Of a stretch of DNA of 59,075 bases, positions 502-34,715 are shown one piece after another (within the stretch, counting starts at the first letter, position 1; every line of letters begins with the position of its first letter). The notes under the pieces are model-generated. The model ran no database searches. It was not told the DNA's origin and saw only the letters and a list, made by a program, of their open reading frames with translations. Source of the stretch: Verrucomicrobiota bacterium (GTDB taxonomy: Bacteria > Verrucomicrobiota > Verrucomicrobiia > Limisphaerales > UBA11358); the NCBI GenBank assembly GCA_050015635.1, contig JBEKBA010000004.1, positions 1-59,075 of the forward strand, in the 5' to 3' direction. The position numbers and the translations under genes are program-made.

Positions 502-1338
502 TCATAGCCGATTCCACCAAATCCCGGTTGGTTTTGGAACGTCAAATTTCACGCGTTGTGCCGGGTTGGCCAGCGTGTAGATGGAATAGCTCGTCGGCTT
601 CAATGAAAAATGGCCGGCGGCGACGCGGCGCAAACGATGTTGCAAAATCCAAATGGGTTTGAGCGTTCGCACCCAGTGCGGAATCATGGCTACTGTTTCA
701 TTTCTTTCCCGAATGGCATTGGGTTTAAGATTCATATTTTCGCCGGTGTCGGCAAAGACGGACGTAAATGAATCGCAAACGGCCATGGGTACTTTGTTTT
801 TCATCAGCGCCAAAACCCAGTGAAAGTCACCGAGATCGCGCCAGTGCGTGTCAAAGAAAATTTCGCGCTCATGAATGACCCGACGGCGGATAAAAATCGA
901 ACTGGTTAAGGCTGAAAAACGAAACCAAACGTGTTGCGGATGCGGCGCCAGCGCATGGCGATGGCACATATAATTTCCAGTGCCGTCGGTCACAATGCTG
1001 CCGGCGAGCGCGACTTCGATTTTTGGATTCGCTTCAAAAAATTCGTGGACGGTTTTGAGCGCGCCGGGCAGATATTGTTCATCGCAGTTCAAGTAAGCGA
1101 GGATGTCCCCGCTTGCGCGGCGGTAGCCGCGATTCACCGCGTCATACATCCCGCCGTCTTTTTCAATGAACGCCTTGACGCGCCGGTCGTGCGGCAGCCA
1201 GTCCTGCGTGCCGTCGTCGGAACAGGAATCCTGCACCATGTGTTCGAGTTCGACCCCCTGCTGGTCGGCCACGGAGGCGATGCAGAGCTTCAGCCAGTTT
1301 GAATTGCGAAAGCTCGGCGTGATGATGGAAAATTTCAT
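502..1338 (-). CDS. Glycosyltransferase family 2
   Basis: MKFSIITPSF start, D..S.DGT, GMYDAVNRG and YLNCDE motifs of the GT-A/GT2 fold. Confidence 0.9.
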   Translation of the reverse strand: MKFSIITPSFRNSNWLKLCIASVADQQGVELEHMVQDSCSDDGTQDWLPHDRRVKAFIEKDGGMYDAVNRGYRRASGDILAYLNCDEQYLPGALKTVHEFFEANPKIEVALAGSIVTDGTGNYMCHRHALAPHPQHVWFRFSALTSSIFIRRRVIHEREIFFDTHWRDLGDFHWVLALMKNKVPMAVCDSFTSVFADTGENMNLKPNAIRERNETVAMIPHWVRTLKPIWILQHRLRRVAAGHFSLKPTSYSIYTLANPAQRVKFDVPKPTGIWWNRL

Positions 1339-1356
1339 GGCGTTTTCATTTGAACC

Positions 1357-2996
1357 TCATTGCGGCGTCCGAAAGCGCTGGGCGATGGGAATCCGCCGCC
1401 CCATGCCAAACGCCCGCGGCGAAATTTTCAACGCAGGCGCGGCCTGACGCCGTTTGTATTCGCTGAAATTGATTTTATTGATTACGTCGTTGACCACCGC
1501 CGCGTCAAAACCGCCGCGAATGATTTCCTCTTTGCTTGAATTTTTTACAACGTATAAATCCAGAATCGCGTCAAGTATTTCGTATTCAGGCAGTGAATCC
1601 TGATCCTTTTGGTCGGGCCGCAACTCCGCGCTCGGCGGTTTGGTGATTGATGCTTCGGGAATAATCATTTTTTCCCGGTTCACCCGCCGCGCGATTTTGT
1701 AAATGTCCGTTTTCAAAACGTCCGCCAGCGGCGCGAGCGCGCCGTCCATGTCTCCGTAAAGCGTGCAATAGCCGACGGCCATCTCCGATTTGTTGCCCGT
1801 CGTCAGCACCAGCGCGCCGAATTTGTTCGACAGCGCCATCAACGTCACGCCGCGCAGCCGCGACTGCATGTTTTCCTCCGCCTCGTTTGGCTTCGTTCCG
1901 TAAAAAACCTTTTCCAATTGTTTTTCCACCGACTGGAAAATGGATTCAATCGGCAAAACTTCGCAACGAATGCCAAGGTTTTTTGCGAGCAACCCGGCGT
2001 CAGTCAAACTGCCCGCGCTCGAATATCGCGCGGGCATCGCCACGCCCAAAACGTTGTCCGCGCCGAGCGCGTCCGCCGCGAGCACGGCGACCAGCGCCGA
2101 ATCAATGCCGCCGGATAAACCGACAATCGCCGATTTGAAACCGCATTTGTGAAGATAATCGCGGATACCGAGTGAAAGAGCGGAAAAAATTTGATCTTCC
2201 CGCACGGGCCATTCGATTTTTGGAGGCAGCGAATTTGTTCCCAAATCCGCCACCAGAATTTCCTCGGTGAATCCTTTGCCCAGCACCAGCGACTCGCCTT
2301 TGTGATTCAAAACGACGCTGTGGCCGTCAAAAATCAATTCGTCGTTCGCCCCGACCAGGTTGACTTGGGCCAGCGGCACGCGCTCGTCACGCGCGACACG
2401 CTGGAGCATTTCGAGCCGGGTTTTCTCCTTGCCGTCATGCCACGGCGAAGCGGCGATGTTAAGAATGATTTCCGCGCCTTGCGAAATGAGTTCCTTGATC
2501 GGGTCGCGCCGATAAAGCCGCTCCGGCCAGAAATCCTCGTCCAGATGTCCTCGCAAATCGTGATGCCGAGCTTGCGTCCATCGAATTCAAACGGCGCGAC
2601 GCTTTTGGCCGGCTCAAAATAACGGTCTTCGTCGAAAACATCGTAAGTCGGCAACAGGCTTTTGTGCGTGCGCCAGATGATTTTTCCATTTTGTAAAACT
2701 GCGGCGGAATTTCGCAGCGCGCGTCCGGGACGCTCTGAATTTTTGTCCACGAAGCCGGTGCACAATGGAATGGCCCCGACGCTTTTTGCCGTTTCCGCAA
2801 GCGCGACGAGATTAGCGTCAATGAAATCGGCGCGCAAAAGCAAATCGCGCGGCGGGTAGCCGCAGAGAAACATTTCCGGCGCGAGAATGAATTCCGCGCC
2901 GAGTACACGGGCTTTTTCGTAACCGGTGATGAGCTTTTCGCGATTCGCCGTGAAATCGCCGATGGTTGAATTTAGTTGGAGAACGCCTATTTTCAA
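1357..2996 (-). pseudogene. nadE: Glutamine-dependent NAD+ synthetase, frameshifted near 2540 (pseudogene or sequencing error)
   Basis: Nitrilase/glutaminase domain (PEMF, HKSLLPTYDVFDE, ICEDIW) in ORF 2334..2996 continues in another frame as EDFWPERLY; synthetase domain with GLSGGIDS, TGNKSE, KPPSAEL and EYKRRQ in 1357..2556. Confidence 0.9.
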
Positions 2997-3104
2997 GGAA
3001 AATCAAGGTAATTGGCGCGGGCGTTTTCGCAATGATTTTATTATCGGGTAATGTGTCATTTTCAATGGTGGCAACACCGCGCGGCGGTTCCTGCGGCTGG
3101 CCGT

Positions 3105-3131
3105 CACGGGCGGCGCAGCGCTGTCCCTGCC
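3105..3131. repeat. Degenerate REP-like element half (GCGCTGTCCCTGCC)
   Basis: Reverse complement closely matches GGTAGGGACAGCGC at 31699; intergenic. Confidence 0.4.
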
Positions 3132-3204
3132 TTCAAATTCAAGGACGGATTATTCATGGGCGGAAGTTTCCTTGCCTTGGTCGCGCAACCATTTCCTTTT
3201 GATT

Positions 3205-4350
3205 TCAGCGATGGTCATTTAGTTTTGCAACCAGACCCCGGATGGCTGTGATGCGTTCGGTGGTCAACTTGTCGAAAGTGAACTCGCTGGCGCGTGATAT
3301 TCCGCCGGCGCGCAGGCGGGCGGTCAGGGTTTCATCAGTGACGATTTTCCCCAGTGCGCCGGCCACGGCGGCGGTATCTTGATAATTGATGATAAGGGCG
3401 TGGCCGCCGGTAACTTCGCGCATGATGGGAATATCGTTGAGCACGCACGGTGTGCCACAAGCCAGCGCTTCGGTCACGCAGCGCCCGAAAGTTTCCTCAC
3501 GGCTGGCCAAACAAAAGGCGGCGGCATGACGATAGAGCGGAGCAAGCATGTCATCGTGAACCCAGCCGGGAAATTTTACATCGTTTTCGACGCCCAAGGA
3601 GCCTACTTGTTTGTTCGCCGTTTCCAGGCCATTGAGCCAGTTGCCGCCAACCATCATCAACGGATGCCGGCGTCTGATTTCCGGATCGAGCCGCGCGTAA
3701 CCGGCAATCAGAAGTTCGGCCTGTTTATAGGGATAAAAATTTGAAACCCAGAGAAAATAACCCGGCTCCAGACCGAATTGTTTTTTGAGGCGGGGCAGTT
3801 CATTATCGGTTGCCTTGGGATGAAAAATTTCATGCTGCACCCCTTCGTAACTGACCATCGTGCGATCATGAAATTCGGGATGAAGCGACAATATCTGCTT
3901 TTCCGTCCAGTGCGAATTGGTGATGACCAGGTCGGCGCGCGGCCAGCCGTATTTGATCATCGAATTCCGGTAGAGTTCGCGCAAGAAGCCCAGTTGATTG
4001 CTTTTGTCCAATGTTTGCAACGAAAGCACGTGCATCGCCGTGGGCAGACATTTGCGAATCGGAACGAAGCCCACGGTGATCAGCACGTCCGCGCCCCGCG
4101 CCCGCGCCACCGCCGGCGCTTGAAAATGATCGGCAAACAAGCGGCGATTGAGGCGGTTGTTTGCCGGAAAATCGCGCACCAATTCGACGCGCGGATCCGT
4201 TACCTTCCACTCTTGATCCGGCCCGGCAAAAATCAGCCAGGACACCTCGGGAAAAAGTTTCAATGCGCTGGCCACAAACCCGTTGAAAAACGTGCTTAAT
4301 CCGGTTTTACGCGCGGGATTTTCAGCGAGAATCGTGAGGGCTAGTTTCAT
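3205..4350 (-). CDS. Glycosyltransferase family 4 (GT-B)
   Basis: ETFGRCVTEALACGTP (E-x7-E motif), YPYKQ and FPGWV. Confidence 0.9.
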   Translation of the reverse strand: MKLALTILAENPARKTGLSTFFNGFVASALKLFPEVSWLIFAGPDQEWKVTDPRVELVRDFPANNRLNRRLFADHFQAPAVARARGADVLITVGFVPIRKCLPTAMHVLSLQTLDKSNQLGFLRELYRNSMIKYGWPRADLVITNSHWTEKQILSLHPEFHDRTMVSYEGVQHEIFHPKATDNELPRLKKQFGLEPGYFLWVSNFYPYKQAELLIAGYARLDPEIRRRHPLMMVGGNWLNGLETANKQVGSLGVENDVKFPGWVHDDMLAPLYRHAAAFCLASREETFGRCVTEALACGTPCVLNDIPIMREVTGGHALIINYQDTAAVAGALGKIVTDETLTARLRAGGISRASEFTFDKLTTERITAIRGLVAKLNDHR

Positions 4351-31266: not shown

Positions 31267-31692
31267 ATGAAACGCAAAGCATCGGCAGTCTGGCGCGGCG
31301 GTTTGAAGGACGGCAAAGGCAGCATCTCGACCGGGAGTGGTGTGCTCAATGAGACGCAATACTCCTTCAGCACGCGCTTCGAAAACGGCATCGGCACGAA
31401 TCCGGAGGAATTGATCGCGGCGGCGCACGCGGGCTGCTTCTCGATGGCGTTCTCGGCGGAACTCGGCAAGGCCGGTTTCACGCCCGCATCCATCCACACC
31501 ACGGCAACCATCACGTTGGAAAAGACTGATGCGGGTTTTACCGTCACGGAATCGCATCTGGACATGACGGCAAAAATTCCCGGTATTGATGAGGCGAAGT
31601 TCATCGCTATCGCGAACGGAGCCAAGGCCGGTTGCCCCATTTCCCGCCTGCTCAATACAAAAATTATTCTGGACGCGAAGCTGGAAGCGTGA
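31267..31692 (+). CDS. osmC: OsmC family peroxiredoxin
   Basis: GTNPEELIAAAHAGCFSM and AKAGCPIS. Confidence 0.93.
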   Translation: MKRKASAVWRGGLKDGKGSISTGSGVLNETQYSFSTRFENGIGTNPEELIAAAHAGCFSMAFSAELGKAGFTPASIHTTATITLEKTDAGFTVTESHLDMTAKIPGIDEAKFIAIANGAKAGCPISRLLNTKIILDAKLEA

Positions 31693-31698
31693 GCGGCA

Positions 31699-31973
31699 GG
31701 TAGGGACAGCGCGCCCCGGCCGCCATAGCGGAACGCGCGACGGCGACTGCGCTGTCCGTAATTGGGTTTGGTGGCCGTCCGCAAGGACCTTGGCGTCTTG
31801 GCGGTTACATCAGGGTCTTGGCCGCAGTGCTGCCGCTCAGCCCTAGCCACTTGTCGCGCCGTAGCTTTCAAGCGAAGGCAGATCAGGCGAAGGGGGATGC
31901 CGTAAGCTCCGTCAGGAGCGAAATCTTTGTAGAAAAAACGCGCCGTAAAATTCCCCGGCCCCATCAGGGGCGA
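31699..31973. repeat. Mosaic of REP-like palindromic elements
   Basis: GGACAGCGC...GCGCTGTCC hairpin (31705-31757), CTTGGCGTCTTGGCGGTTA, CCGTAGCTTTCAAGCGAAGGC and GCTCCGTCAGGAGC...GCCCCATCAGGGGC. Confidence 0.6.
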
Positions 31974-32017
31974 CCCCCTCCGGTAGTGCCTTACAAAACA
32001 TTGATACAAAAACCAAT

Positions 32018-32173
32018 ATGAGCAGACCGCAAAAAATCATTCCGCCCATCAAGGGCGGCTTCAATGAGATTCTCACCGCCGTTGCATTAGGCAAAGGAAG
32101 GGCGAAACAAGTTGCGCCTAAGGTTGGTGAAAAAGTGGGGGCAGTTCGTAAAAAAAAGACCGGAAAATCTTAA
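32018..32173 (+). CDS. Small basic protein following the transposase remnant
   Basis: MSRPQKIIPPIKGGFNEILTAVALGKG... 51 aa; ATGA overlap with the remnant stop. Confidence 0.5.
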   Translation: MSRPQKIIPPIKGGFNEILTAVALGKGRAKQVAPKVGEKVGAVRKKKTGKS

Positions 32174-32272
32174 AATCGTCGATTTTGTTGGTATTTTAGG
32201 GGTTGATTTTTAAGGATTACGGCGCACAATGCCGCATGTCGGCCTTGAGTTTTTATATGCATAAGGCATATT

Positions 32273-32623
32273 TTGGATATGGAAATACCAAAACCTGCAC
32301 CAAATCTTGCGGCTAAACCGGCGGCCAATCCGGTTCCCAAGTTTATTGCTCCTCAAATGGCTGGCTTCCCGTTGGCTGCGCTCATGCAACAACAAATGAT
32401 GCCGTCGTTTTATGCCAACGGATTTGAGATATCCGTATCCGGGGCCGATGTGTGTATTAAACTGTCTCAAAACAACAGACAGATTTGCACGCTCAATCTC
32501 TCATTCATTACCGCAAAGGGTTTGGGCGCCGGTTTATCTGGTGTCATTAAGGAATTTGAAGAAAGAACCCAAAACAAGGTTCCATCATTTGAAGAAGTGA
32601 TGAAAGCTATGGAGGCTCAATAA
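32273..32623 (+). CDS. Hypothetical protein, DUF3467-like
   Basis: Low-complexity N-terminus, then FYANGF.....DV.I...AK.L...L...IKEFE pattern. Confidence 0.65.
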   Translation: MDMEIPKPAPNLAAKPAANPVPKFIAPQMAGFPLAALMQQQMMPSFYANGFEISVSGADVCIKLSQNNRQICTLNLSFITAKGLGAGLSGVIKEFEERTQNKVPSFEEVMKAMEAQ

Positions 32624-32625
32624 AT

Positions 32626-33432
32626 ATGAATACGGATTCTATTAAATCCGCCATGTTGATGGAGATTTTCAATTTATTAAGTGCCAATAACACCGACGAA
32701 AAGATTTTAGATTTTGCGGATGTAACGCCGGGTTGGCATTTTGGGGAGGGAGCCACAATATCCGCTGCCGCAATCCGGGACGCTACAAAACTTCATGAAG
32801 CTTTTCTTTTGAATGGTTTTTATGAAACTGACGCATTTCCAGGACTTGCGGGGGAAATCCGTGTAACCGCATATCACGAAAATCAATATTTTGAATTTAC
32901 CAGAGAGATGAACGGGGGATGGTCTTATATTTGTGAGATAGATGGTGCTGTTGAAGAAGAACTCGAAAACCTCTCATTGGAACAGGTGCAAGGCATTATA
33001 AAAACAGCCTCTAATAACTTATGGAATATATACGATATTTCCCTAGGCAACATTGGGATTCAAGGCTCGGAAGATTTCAAAGTCTCGCCTTTAGACCATC
33101 AGACGACGGAGGAATTTCGGTCGTGGAACAGCCTTGCGCCACAGCCGGGCATTCACTATGTGAGCACCTCAGGATATTTTATCCCTCCGCAGGCGAGCCG
33201 CCAATTTTTTGGAGGTTCTCAGACGCCATATTACCAAACACCACATCAATCGTTGAATCGCCGAGTGATACAGGCGACACATGCCATAGGGACATCATCA
33301 ATATCTCCAACAAAGATTCCTCGAATATATTCAAAAAGTTCTGTGCTCAACCCGATGATATCGAAATCTGCGTGGGAAACGAGTCAAGACGCTTCAGCCC
33401 TTCAGACATGTCTACGGTTTGAGGCGGATTAA
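32626..33432 (+). CDS. Hypothetical protein, candidate antitoxin; acidic globular N-half and S/T/P/Q-rich C-half
   Basis: Starts 2 nt after the previous stop; GWHFGEG and AFP...GEI motifs. Confidence 0.7.
   Translation: MNTDSIKSAMLMEIFNLLSANNTDEKILDFADVTPGWHFGEGATISAAAIRDATKLHEAFLLNGFYETDAFPGLAGEIRVTAYHENQYFEFTREMNGGWSYICEIDGAVEEELENLSLEQVQGIIKTASNNLWNIYDISLGNIGIQGSEDFKVSPLDHQTTEEFRSWNSLAPQPGIHYVSTSGYFIPPQASRQFFGGSQTPYYQTPHQSLNRRVIQATHAIGTSSISPTKIPRIYSKSSVLNPMISKSAWETSQDASALQTCLRFEAD
33021..33422 (+). CDS. Nested alternative-frame ORF, candidate ADP-ribosyltransferase-fold toxin
   Basis: YIR...SLAFRPS.DGGISV...H.DI pattern; 133 aa open in AT-rich DNA. Confidence 0.6.
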   Translation: MEYIRYFPRQHWDSRLGRFQSLAFRPSDDGGISVVEQPCATAGHSLCEHLRIFYPSAGEPPIFWRFSDAILPNTTSIVESPSDTGDTCHRDIINISNKDSSNIFKKFCAQPDDIEICVGNESRRFSPSDMSTV

Positions 33433-33549
33433 GTTAGTATTCGGTCACAACCTGTTGATTTTCGGCTTCTTTCAGCCTCTTTCGGTCTTTTTCAGGGTAA
33501 CATTGCATATAAATCCCCAAATTATGCCACCACCCCGCCTCCGGGTCAG

Positions 33550-33584: not shown

Positions 33585-34715
33585 ATGAATCCTGGACGTC
33601 TTGTCGTCGCCGTCATCGCCGTGTTCGTCGGAGCCGCCGCAATCAATTCCGCCGGCGAATCTTTGGTTTATTTCGGCACCTATACCGGCGCGAAGAGCCA
33701 GGGAATTTACGTATCCCGATTTGACCCGGCGACCGGAGGATTGAGCGCGCCGGAACTTGCCGCCACGACCCGAAACCCGACCTTCCTCGCCGTCCATCCC
33801 GGCGGGCGTTGCCTTTACGCCGTCAATGAAGTGGGCGACGCCGGCACCGTGAGCGCCTTCGCGATTGATGCCGAAACCGGCAAACTGACTCTGCTGAACC
33901 GGCAGGGTTCCGGTGGCGGCGGGCCATGCCATCTCTCCGTGGACGCTACCGGCAGGTGCCTCCTCGTCGCGAACTACAACTCCGGCAGCATCGCCGCGCT
34001 GCCCATTCATGCCGACGGCAGCCTGGGTGAAGCGACGACCACCATCCAGCACACCGGTTCCAGCGTGAATCCCGCGCGCCAGACCGGGCCGCACGCGCAT
34101 TTCATCTGTCCCTCGCCCGATGACCGCTTTGCGCTCAATTGCGACCTCGGCCTGGACAAGGTGTTCGTCTATCGCCTCGACGCCGATGCCGCCCGACTGT
34201 CGCCGGGCGACCCGCCGTTCGCGACCGTTGCGCCCGGCTCCGGCCCGCGCCATCTGACTTTTTCCCCCGACGGCAGATTCGTTTATGTCATCAACGAAAT
34301 GGGCGGCACGATCAATGTGTTCAGCTACAACGCCGCGAACGCGGCGTTGACCGGAGTGCAGACCATTTCCACGCTGCCTGCGGATTTTTCCGGGAAAAAC
34401 ACCGCCGCCGAAATTGCCCTGACTCCATCGGGAAAATTCCTTTACGCCTCGAATCGCGGGGACGACAGCCTCGCCGTATTCGCGGTGGATCGGAAATCCG
34501 GCAGACTCACACTGGTCGAACATCAATCCACGCAAGGCCGCACGCCGCGCCACTTCGTCATTGACCCGACCGGACACTGGCTGCTCGCGGAAAATCAGGC
34601 GTCTGATTCGGTCGTCGTGTTCGCCCTGGATCCCGATACCGGTAGGTTGAAACCGACCGGACAAACCGTTGCCATCGGCGCGCCAGTATGCGCCGTTTTT
34701 GTGGATGAAAAGTAA
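33585..34715 (+). CDS. Lactonase family 7-bladed beta-propeller (6-phosphogluconolactonase-like), with signal peptide
   Basis: YFGTYT, GPCH, VANY, PHAH, DLGLD, GSGPRH, YASNRG and TPRHF. Confidence 0.92.
   Translation: MNPGRLVVAVIAVFVGAAAINSAGESLVYFGTYTGAKSQGIYVSRFDPATGGLSAPELAATTRNPTFLAVHPGGRCLYAVNEVGDAGTVSAFAIDAETGKLTLLNRQGSGGGGPCHLSVDATGRCLLVANYNSGSIAALPIHADGSLGEATTTIQHTGSSVNPARQTGPHAHFICPSPDDRFALNCDLGLDKVFVYRLDADAARLSPGDPPFATVAPGSGPRHLTFSPDGRFVYVINEMGGTINVFSYNAANAALTGVQTISTLPADFSGKNTAAEIALTPSGKFLYASNRGDDSLAVFAVDRKSGRLTLVEHQSTQGRTPRHFVIDPTGHWLLAENQASDSVVVFALDPDTGRLKPTGQTVAIGAPVCAVFVDEK

Follow-up and report, generated by a model that had tools for sequence, protein, structure and literature searches.

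The closest described relative of the locus analyzed here is, by homology, PDC-M32, a two-gene phage defence candidate in PADLOC-DB v2 and one of 145 candidates obtained via "guilt-by-embedding" (bioRxiv 10.1101/2024.01.29.577857). By concept, the nearest system is the slr0489 family of Synechocystis 6803, where slr0489, slr1079 and slr1082 are described as "genes-in-genes"; that preprint reports for slr0489 (Slr0489L/S) that a 112-amino-acid (aa) frame is nested out of frame, that both frames undergo translation and that the products bind each other (bioRxiv 10.64898/2025.12.20.695498). Our locus lies in a 59,075-nucleotide (nt) stretch of a Verrucomicrobiota bacterium (assembly GCA_050015635.1, contig JBEKBA010000004.1, positions 1 to 59,075; hereafter the window), where an inner open reading frame (ORF), gene B, is contained entirely within an outer ORF, gene A, on the same strand and in another frame. 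The explanation that we favor, at a probability of roughly 0.6 as a whole, is that the window holds a horizontally acquired cassette of three genes (orf116, A and B), that A and B are both real, and that they would form a toxin-antitoxin (TA)-like or anti-phage pair of the kind proposed for their relatives PDC-M32A and PDC-M32B.

A and B are both genuine coding genes

The nested pair and the two parts of its outer gene are laid out as follows:

32626–33432, + strand: outer ORF (A gene), ATG at 32626, stop at 33430–33432, 268 aa
33021–33422, + strand: inner ORF (B gene), ATG at 33021, stop at 33420–33422, 133 aa
32626–33039, + strand: folded N-terminal domain of A, spanning residues 1 to about 138, carrying the motifs GWHxGEG and DAFPGxxGE and akin to the PDC-M32A C-terminal domain
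33040–33432, + strand: tail of A, residues about 139–268 plus the stop, in the +1 frame over the inner gene, predicted to be disordered and rich in S/T/P/Q

The two genes share a stretch of about 400 bases, over which the outer frame is offset by +1 from the inner one. Two consecutive TAA codons at 33012–33017 shut the inner frame right before the inner ATG, and the third forward frame carries seven stops across the overlap, from 33044 to 33356. The overlap region is a low-GC island with a guanine plus cytosine (GC) content of 40–49%, compared to 58–66% in the flanks. When the codons of the window's inner gene were permuted synonymously, with about 3 stops expected, the +1 frame was wholly open in 0.9% of 4000 permutations, which means that the double open frame is real and unusual.

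Gene A is a genuine coding gene, whose product begins with a compact domain of some 138 residues and ends in a disordered tail. A phmmer search with the 268-aa protein against 1.84 billion representatives returned 1176 of them at E ≤ 1e-3 and 461 at E ≤ 1e-10. In the AlphaFold model the predicted local distance difference test score (pLDDT) is 95–98 at residues 21–130, and the domain consists of three helices, a five-stranded sheet and a final helix (118–138) that overlies the first 6 codons of the inner gene. From residue 141 on, the mean pLDDT of 10-residue blocks is 41–60 with no secondary structure. The tails are compositionally distinct as well, with S/T/P/Q/G/N making up 45% of residues vs. 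31% in the N-terminal domains of 20 loci, and charged residues 15% vs. 25%. An earlier reading of this DNA, made from the letters alone (hereafter the sequence-only reading), had placed the inner ORF fully inside the outer one at coordinates that prove exact; its further judgments, that two open frames are unlikely by chance and that the outer protein changes character where the inner ORF begins, agree with the codon permutations and with the fall in pLDDT and rise in S/T/P/Q/G/N just described.

Gene B is likewise a genuine coding gene, and its product is a compact, confidently folded, Cys/His-rich protein of 133 aa. The AlphaFold model, built from 17 sequences, has a pLDDT of 93.5 and a predicted template modelling score of 0.86. 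Four database homologues were found at 43–44% identity (E 7.5e-26 to 6.4e-17), and of the candidates from a pattern scan for inner-family loci, 14 of 56 were confirmed in species genomes and 13 of 54 in metagenomes. The resulting 27 inner-gene loci are spread over many phyla, with record titles that include Lamprocystis, Verrucomicrobiae, Chthoniobacterales, Helicobacteraceae, Alphaproteobacteria and Hydrogenedentota, as well as Binatia, Nitrospirales, Acidobacteriota, Blastocatellia and Heliobacteriaceae. Over 58 aligned sequences S33, Y54, C88, H89 and C117 are invariant, and M1, F19, F24, G31, C39, C47, H49, P60, W64, S82, G85 and D86 reach 90% conservation or more. Zinc may be held by the four Cys that are conserved (39, 47, 88 and 117), a guess from the residue pattern.

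A profile search with the inner family returned 56 protein clusters, most of them from short contigs, whose only name is "hypothetical protein" and none of which has a Pfam family. Neither protein had a significant family match in Pfam, NCBIfam or PHROGs, and a profile search of PDB sequences with the cassette families returned nothing. We infer that the longer outer ORF is what gene finders report, at the expense of the nested one, and this would leave the inner family poorly represented, with its 56 clusters compared to 1176 representatives of its partner, two figures that come from different kinds of search. A lead from the Atlas, DUF6098 (score 0.93), has neither Pfam support in 17 members nor any literature, and we treat it as a lead.

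Apart from the window, the pair was followed in 22 related loci (L002–L015, L017, L019–L021 and L023–L026), five others being left out (L016, which has no upstream DNA; L018, identical to L017; and the fragments L022, L027 and L028). In all of them an outer homologue is the immediate upstream neighbor of the inner one (23 of 23 when the window is counted), and it is in the +1 frame in 21, the exception being the degraded locus L026. The outer ORF extends into the inner gene in 20 of the 22; in L009 it stops 5 nt short of the B ATG, and L026 is broken. Over 20 distinct loci the overlap is 0–128 codons with a median of 78, or 21–128 codons where there is any (the lowest value being that of L015), and the 133 codons of the window are the extreme. 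One more locus, L036, was found via the outer profile and has B in the same frame relation to A. Among the 94 best-scoring outer homologues, a list that is ranked by score and so favors long, query-like tails, 92 end past the inner start, 88 of them by 33 codons or more, with a median length of about 208 aa and with ends mapped via a MAFFT alignment. A near-full-length outer form is kept in P0006 (63% identity, 270 aa) and P0007 (43% identity, 279 aa). The +1 overlap is a trait of this family, and full nesting is its extreme case.

Of three outcomes that had been named as speaking against the sequence-only reading, two concern homologous loci, namely stops in the inner frame of homologues and outer homologues that end near 33025, and both checks favor the reading. 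The inner frame is intact in 20 of the 22 related loci, and only one of them, L009, stops at the junction. The further idea that the two genes are physically inseparable holds in part. They are obligate neighbors, as the count of 23 of 23 demonstrates, but the conserved state is a partial overlap of 21–128 codons and not full nesting, and since L009 has no overlap and the PDC-M32-like loci discussed below have ordinary junctions, the genes are not inseparable in general.

These comparisons also bear on whether the nesting is a local accident, in which a stop was lost in the window copy only, or an error of assembly. The window does sit at the extreme of the overlap distribution, as such an accident would have it, but overlap in 20 of the 22 related loci, outer homologues that end beyond the B start in 92 of 94 cases and the long form shared by P0006 and P0007 all stand against this account. 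Contigs from RNA libraries of two studies match 32258–32492, 33033–33222, 33181–33397 and 33300–33450 exactly; independent DNA and RNA contigs agree with the nested region with zero differences, and no variants were seen among public reads. We consider a lost stop or a sequencing artefact extremely unlikely and reject it, as the overlap recurs and independent contigs agree. The RNA-library contigs also give weak evidence for transcription of orf116 and the overlap.

A second alternative is that a programmed −1 frameshift yields an A-B fusion, the tail of A being the product of ribosomes that do not shift. The frame relation would permit this, given that B is in the −1 frame relative to A, and three proteins (P0156, 310 aa; P0070, 270 aa; P0136, 246 aa) do consist of the outer protein and its tail followed by a change into the inner frame. 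Their joins differ in position, however (around B residue 46 or 80), as indels would give, and it is presumably by indels that the inner protein was fused and cut short in these three. When longer proteins containing B were sought, no fusion to a polymorphic toxin turned up, the sole return being the switch from A tail to B frame in P0156. Moreover, the inner start codon is aligned across loci, conservation of B begins at residue 1–2, and in 12 of 23 loci (the window included) the inner frame opens no more than 24 nt upstream of the B start. No slippery heptamer was apparent at the window junction when it was read by eye, and a fusion would leave the openness of the A frame further downstream unexplained. 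A frameshift product is thus very unlikely, and we reject it on the aligned B start, the varied fusion points and the open downstream A frame.

Kinship with PDC-M32 and the possible roles of the two proteins

Judged by its sequence, the A/B pair is a distant relative of PDC-M32. The PDC-M32A profile matches 51 of 95 outer-family members with a best E of 3.9e-9, the alignment covering only about 100 C-terminal profile positions rather than the full 376–384. For the inner family, hhalign against PDC-M32B gave an E of 7e-4 with one sequence, and a probability of 80% with an E of 1.4e-5 over 40 columns when a five-sequence PDC-M32B alignment was used. The arrangement is alike, in that A immediately precedes B on the same strand both in PDC-M32-like loci (L037, L040–L043) and in the 23 loci here, and in PDC-M32 loci, too, A is followed by a B protein of about 125 aa. 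The N-terminal motif R..G+..S.aF.P...G.lSV of PDC-M32B is common to the inner family, and a His at the start of strand 5 appears conserved in both when the alignments are read by eye.

The differences are considerable. PDC-M32A has 376–384 residues, and its large N-terminal part is missing from A here, whereas PDC-M32B lacks the four conserved Cys of the inner family. The A/B junction in five PDC-M32-like loci ranges from a 16-nt overlap to a 19-nt gap, compared to 21–136 codons of overlap here, so that the long overlap is a derived trait of this subfamily. A first gene of the orf116 type was not seen in PDC-M32 loci, where L037 has an AAA_21 ATPase upstream. Literature searches, whose scope left aside the supplements of the PADLOC preprint that possibly describe PDC-M32, found no paper on this family or its overlap.

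Full-length PDC-M32A genes occur elsewhere in two of the genomes that hold the cassette. In L037 the gene after PDC-M32A is a true PDC-M32B (E 4e-50), and since this locus shares its genome with the cassette copy L002, one genome carries both the long and the minimal form. L037 itself (G443:C45, minus strand, 1097–3706) encodes an AAA_21/ABC-type ATPase of 362 aa, a PDC-M32A of 379 aa and a PDC-M32B of 126 aa with 4-nt overlaps. In L042 (G538:C3) an ORF of 155 aa and two smaller ones (84 and 110 aa), at 1107–1574 and 1807–2390, are neighbors of a short A/B pair that is PDC-M32-like; their size and sequence give the impression that they may be a HicA/HicB-like TA pair, a hint of a defence or TA island.

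With regard to function, B would be an enzyme-like effector using S33, H89 and D86, as its conserved residues suggest, and the A domain would be its binding partner and neutralizer. B is broken or fused in several natural copies (L011, a close relative of L013, as well as L026, P0070, P0156 and P0136), and such recurrent damage would fit a costly effector.

The roles may be the reverse, with A (or orf116) the active or sensing component and B neutralizing or assisting it, or the function may be unrelated to toxicity. In the only studied nested pair of this kind, Slr0489L/S, it is the outer protein that is toxic and the inner one that neutralizes (bioRxiv 10.64898/2025.12.20.695498). We consider either case quite unlikely for the present pair. 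Natural copies repeatedly break or fuse B and not A, B has invariant polar and Cys/His residues such as an enzyme would carry, and the A domain also serves as the C-terminal module of the larger PDC-M32A proteins.

A more specific proposal came from the sequence-only reading, which took the inner protein for an ADP-ribosyltransferase (ART)-fold toxin, by its layout of R, S and H, and the outer protein for its antitoxin. The predicted order of elements in the inner model (strand, short helix, strand, helices, three strands, helix, two strands) is one that we take to be compatible with an ART-like core. S33, which lies in strand 2 (32–36), supplies the conserved Ser expected there (STS-like), H89 stands at the start of strand 5, both are invariant, and the positions of both seem compatible with ART-fold toxins (Tse2-like, R-S-E clade); the gene context also resembles a TA or defence pair. 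On the other hand, the inner protein has no match to any ART family among Pfam, NCBIfam and PDB sequences, and an Atlas structure search returned no ART family, only unnamed clusters with template modelling scores of 0.63–0.64. The Arg expected in strand 1 is less than 90% conserved (R5, which is Leu in L003 and L005). No Glu of the inner family is conserved, and where the catalytic one would be expected, before or in strand 5, the conserved residues are S82, G85, D86, C88 and H89. Lacking a sequence match, a conserved Glu and an invariant Arg, B is thus unlike these toxins in three respects; the ART reading is weakened, and we regard it as doubtful.

Openness of the +1 frame over gene B

The cassette copies are 50–68% identical at the DNA level, a divergence too large for the ratio of nonsynonymous to synonymous substitution rates (dN/dS), so codon-position and stop-placement tests were used instead. 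In the overlap, nucleotide identity at inner-frame codon positions 1, 2 and 3 is 0.51, 0.59 and 0.35, and outside it 0.44, 0.53 and 0.29, with the same order of 2 > 1 > 3, an inner-frame periodicity that also supports B as a coding gene. A base in the inner third position falls on codon position 2 of the outer frame. At shared inner residues, third-position identity is 40.8% in the overlap vs. 40.9% outside, and all four bases are present at the third position of invariant inner residues such as G31, S33, P60, P72 and G85. The lack of extra third-position conservation in the overlap means that the residues of the outer tail are under no detectable constraint of their own. The apparent motifs of the tail are shadows of inner conservation, with W/C over the inner ATG and "..ATHAIGT.." over SDTGDxCH. 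Both frames are open and conserved in homologues, as dual coding would have it, while residue-level selection on both is not borne out.

For the stop tests we used the 20 distinct loci, with L011 and L026 set aside and the window excluded. Relative to synonymous-codon shuffles the first +1 stop comes late (Fisher p = 2e-5), falling later than the null median in 17 of the 20 loci, and when each gene's own +1 stops are placed uniformly the corresponding value is p = 4e-7. The +1 stop rate per codon is 0.0137 before the first stop vs. 0.0368 after it (p = 8e-5), and tails longer than 60 codons are observed in 12 of 20 loci, compared to the 11% expected at the later stop rate. We take this as moderate evidence that termination near the A/B junction is disfavored, and it looks as though the openness of the +1 frame is maintained while the residues of the tail are not.

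How such openness might be of use can be outlined. In this subfamily the A gene lacks a stop at the end of its domain, and its frame runs on as +1 over the start and first part of B and, in the window, over all of B, such that ribosomes translating A would traverse the initiation site of B. Because these ribosomes would run through the B start, there would be no coupling of termination to reinitiation, and B synthesis would be low relative to that of A. The long overlap would then serve expression control, and the A tail may additionally supply a disordered, protease-accessible end. The overlap would in this case be a selected "entanglement" device throughout a subfamily of a defence/TA-like module, with the neutralizer tail written in the +1 frame of the effector gene and the effector start occluded, a suggestion that we hold only tentatively. 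If it is true, the entanglement sets a low effector-to-neutralizer ratio, deletions or frameshifts in the effector gene would alter the neutralizer too, and the effector family is nearly invisible because gene finders skip nested genes.

A possible alternative, which we also hold to be well short of probable, is neutral read-through, in which both genes are real, the long tail has no function and full nesting is a lucky extreme. The cause would be that A has no nearby stop and that the conserved composition of B offers few opportunities for +1 stops. The unconstrained tail residues and the range of tail length, from 21 to 128 codons, are what this account would lead one to expect, as is the stop of L009 ahead of the B ATG; the PDC-M32 relatives, moreover, function, if at all, without such tails. 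It fits less well with the size of the effect, given that the +1 frame deviates far more than the control +2 frame (Fisher p = 2e-5 vs. 0.015), and with tails of more than 60 codons in 12 of 20 loci where 11% are expected. A stop at the junction should be easy to evolve, yet it is found in just one of the 22 related loci, and near-full-length forms last at 63% and 43% identity.

A number of observations weigh against the cassette explanation that we favor or against selected openness, some of them in direct support of neutral read-through. Early stops are fewer in the control +2 frame too (p = 0.015, 0.043 and 0.008), an effect weaker than in the +1 frame, and this indicates that part of the openness effect is compositional. 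When the shuffle is limited to codons with the same following base, a context-preserving but imperfect test with little freedom, the +1 signal is not significant (p = 0.22), with 12 loci above the null median, 1 below and 7 ties. L009 without overlap and L015 with its 21 codons count against selected openness, and the best 150 A homologues form a list biased to long, query-like tails. An SD-like (Shine-Dalgarno-like) tetramer precedes the B start in 10 of 21 loci only. The RNA-library contigs possibly derive from DNA carry-over, and they cannot discriminate which frame is translated. As for the kinship, the A protein of the window matches PDC-M32A with an E of 0.0038 over profile positions 269–362 of 384, the PDC-M32B profile hits one of 17 inner members (E 0.035) with no hit to the window copy, and the profile alignment of the inner family with PDC-M32B is confined to 40 N-terminal columns. 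PDC-M32 is itself only a candidate system, one of 145 (bioRxiv 10.1101/2024.01.29.577857). Finally, no relatives of the cassette were found in the viral contig and plasmid collections searched.

The cassette and its comparison with known systems

The surroundings of the A/B pair bear on its acquisition, and the features concerned are these:

31700–33547, no strand given: low-GC insertion carrying the cassette, 1848 bp, GC 40–49% vs. 58–66% outside
31267–31692: OsmC-like gene, left flank of the insertion
33585–34715: lactonase-like gene, right flank of the insertion
32273–32623, + strand: orf116, first gene of the cassette, with a core of about 75 aa, distantly DUF3467-like, ending 2 nt before the outer ATG

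In the same-genus genomes G002 and G022 the OsmC-like gene directly adjoins the lactonase-like gene, 0 to about 48 nt lying between them, and it follows that 31700–33547 is an insertion. The cassette is sporadic, being present in 2 of 401 sampled genomes of the phylum, the window's own included. Its first gene, orf116, is the sole other conserved neighbor, with a homologue immediately ahead of the outer gene in 14 of 23 loci. DUF3467 (PF11950) matches 3 of 13 orf116 members weakly (best E 0.0023) and the window copy not at all, and a literature search on DUF3467 found nothing useful. No tRNA was found beside the island, and promoter and terminator scans gave results at chance level.

The insertion also contains two short repeats of the interspersed kind. 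That at 31700–31790 has 6 more copies (85–95% identity) on other contigs of the same genome, and that at about 31900–31975 has many copies in same-genus genomes; many public-run contigs end or branch at 31698–31758 and 31904–31939. Between the repeats and the cassette lies a basic 51-aa ORF (orf51, 32018–32173), which has no homologue in related loci and no family hit and is unlikely to be a gene. Flanking the three genes is a 17-nt inverted repeat that is imperfect (82% complementary; 32245–32261 and 33504–33520); it may be due to chance and we make no claim for it.

Sizeable bacterial genes rarely overlap at length on one strand in different frames, and where they do, the overlap is usually put down to faulty annotation. 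In the present case such an overlap is seen again and again over many phyla, in a family of more than 1000 sequence clusters, and B is a folded family that has no curated Pfam or NCBIfam entry and is largely missed by gene calling. The locus offers a natural case for an overlap that may govern the expression ratio of a putative toxin-neutralizer pair, and it ties the PDC-M32 candidate to a far larger group of minimal cassettes. When defence and TA systems are surveyed by homology, one may miss effectors that are hidden beneath the reading frames of their partners.

In type II TA operons the junction between the two genes is usually 1–8 nt. The cassette resembles these operons as a pair of small, co-directional, adjacent genes with a sporadic spread on mobile DNA, a presumed neutralizer in the upstream position and a disordered C-terminus on the upstream protein. 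It differs from them in that no DNA-binding domain was recognized in A and B has no match to a known toxin family. The Rz/Rz1 spanins of phage lambda, which are phage lysis proteins, have one gene embedded in the +1 frame of its partner, and their products form a complex. Both frames are functional in that case, whereas here a single frame shows residue-level constraint in the overlap.

In Slr0489L/S one nested partner neutralizes the toxicity of the other, which is the concept proposed here. There, however, the outer protein is the toxic one and the family is small, whereas the present family has more than 1000 clusters and an overlap of varying length made up of a disordered tail; the two are likened by concept. 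What is new here, relative to both this system and PDC-M32, is a minimal PDC-M32-like pair in which the gene of the putative effector is systematically overlapped by the tail of its partner.

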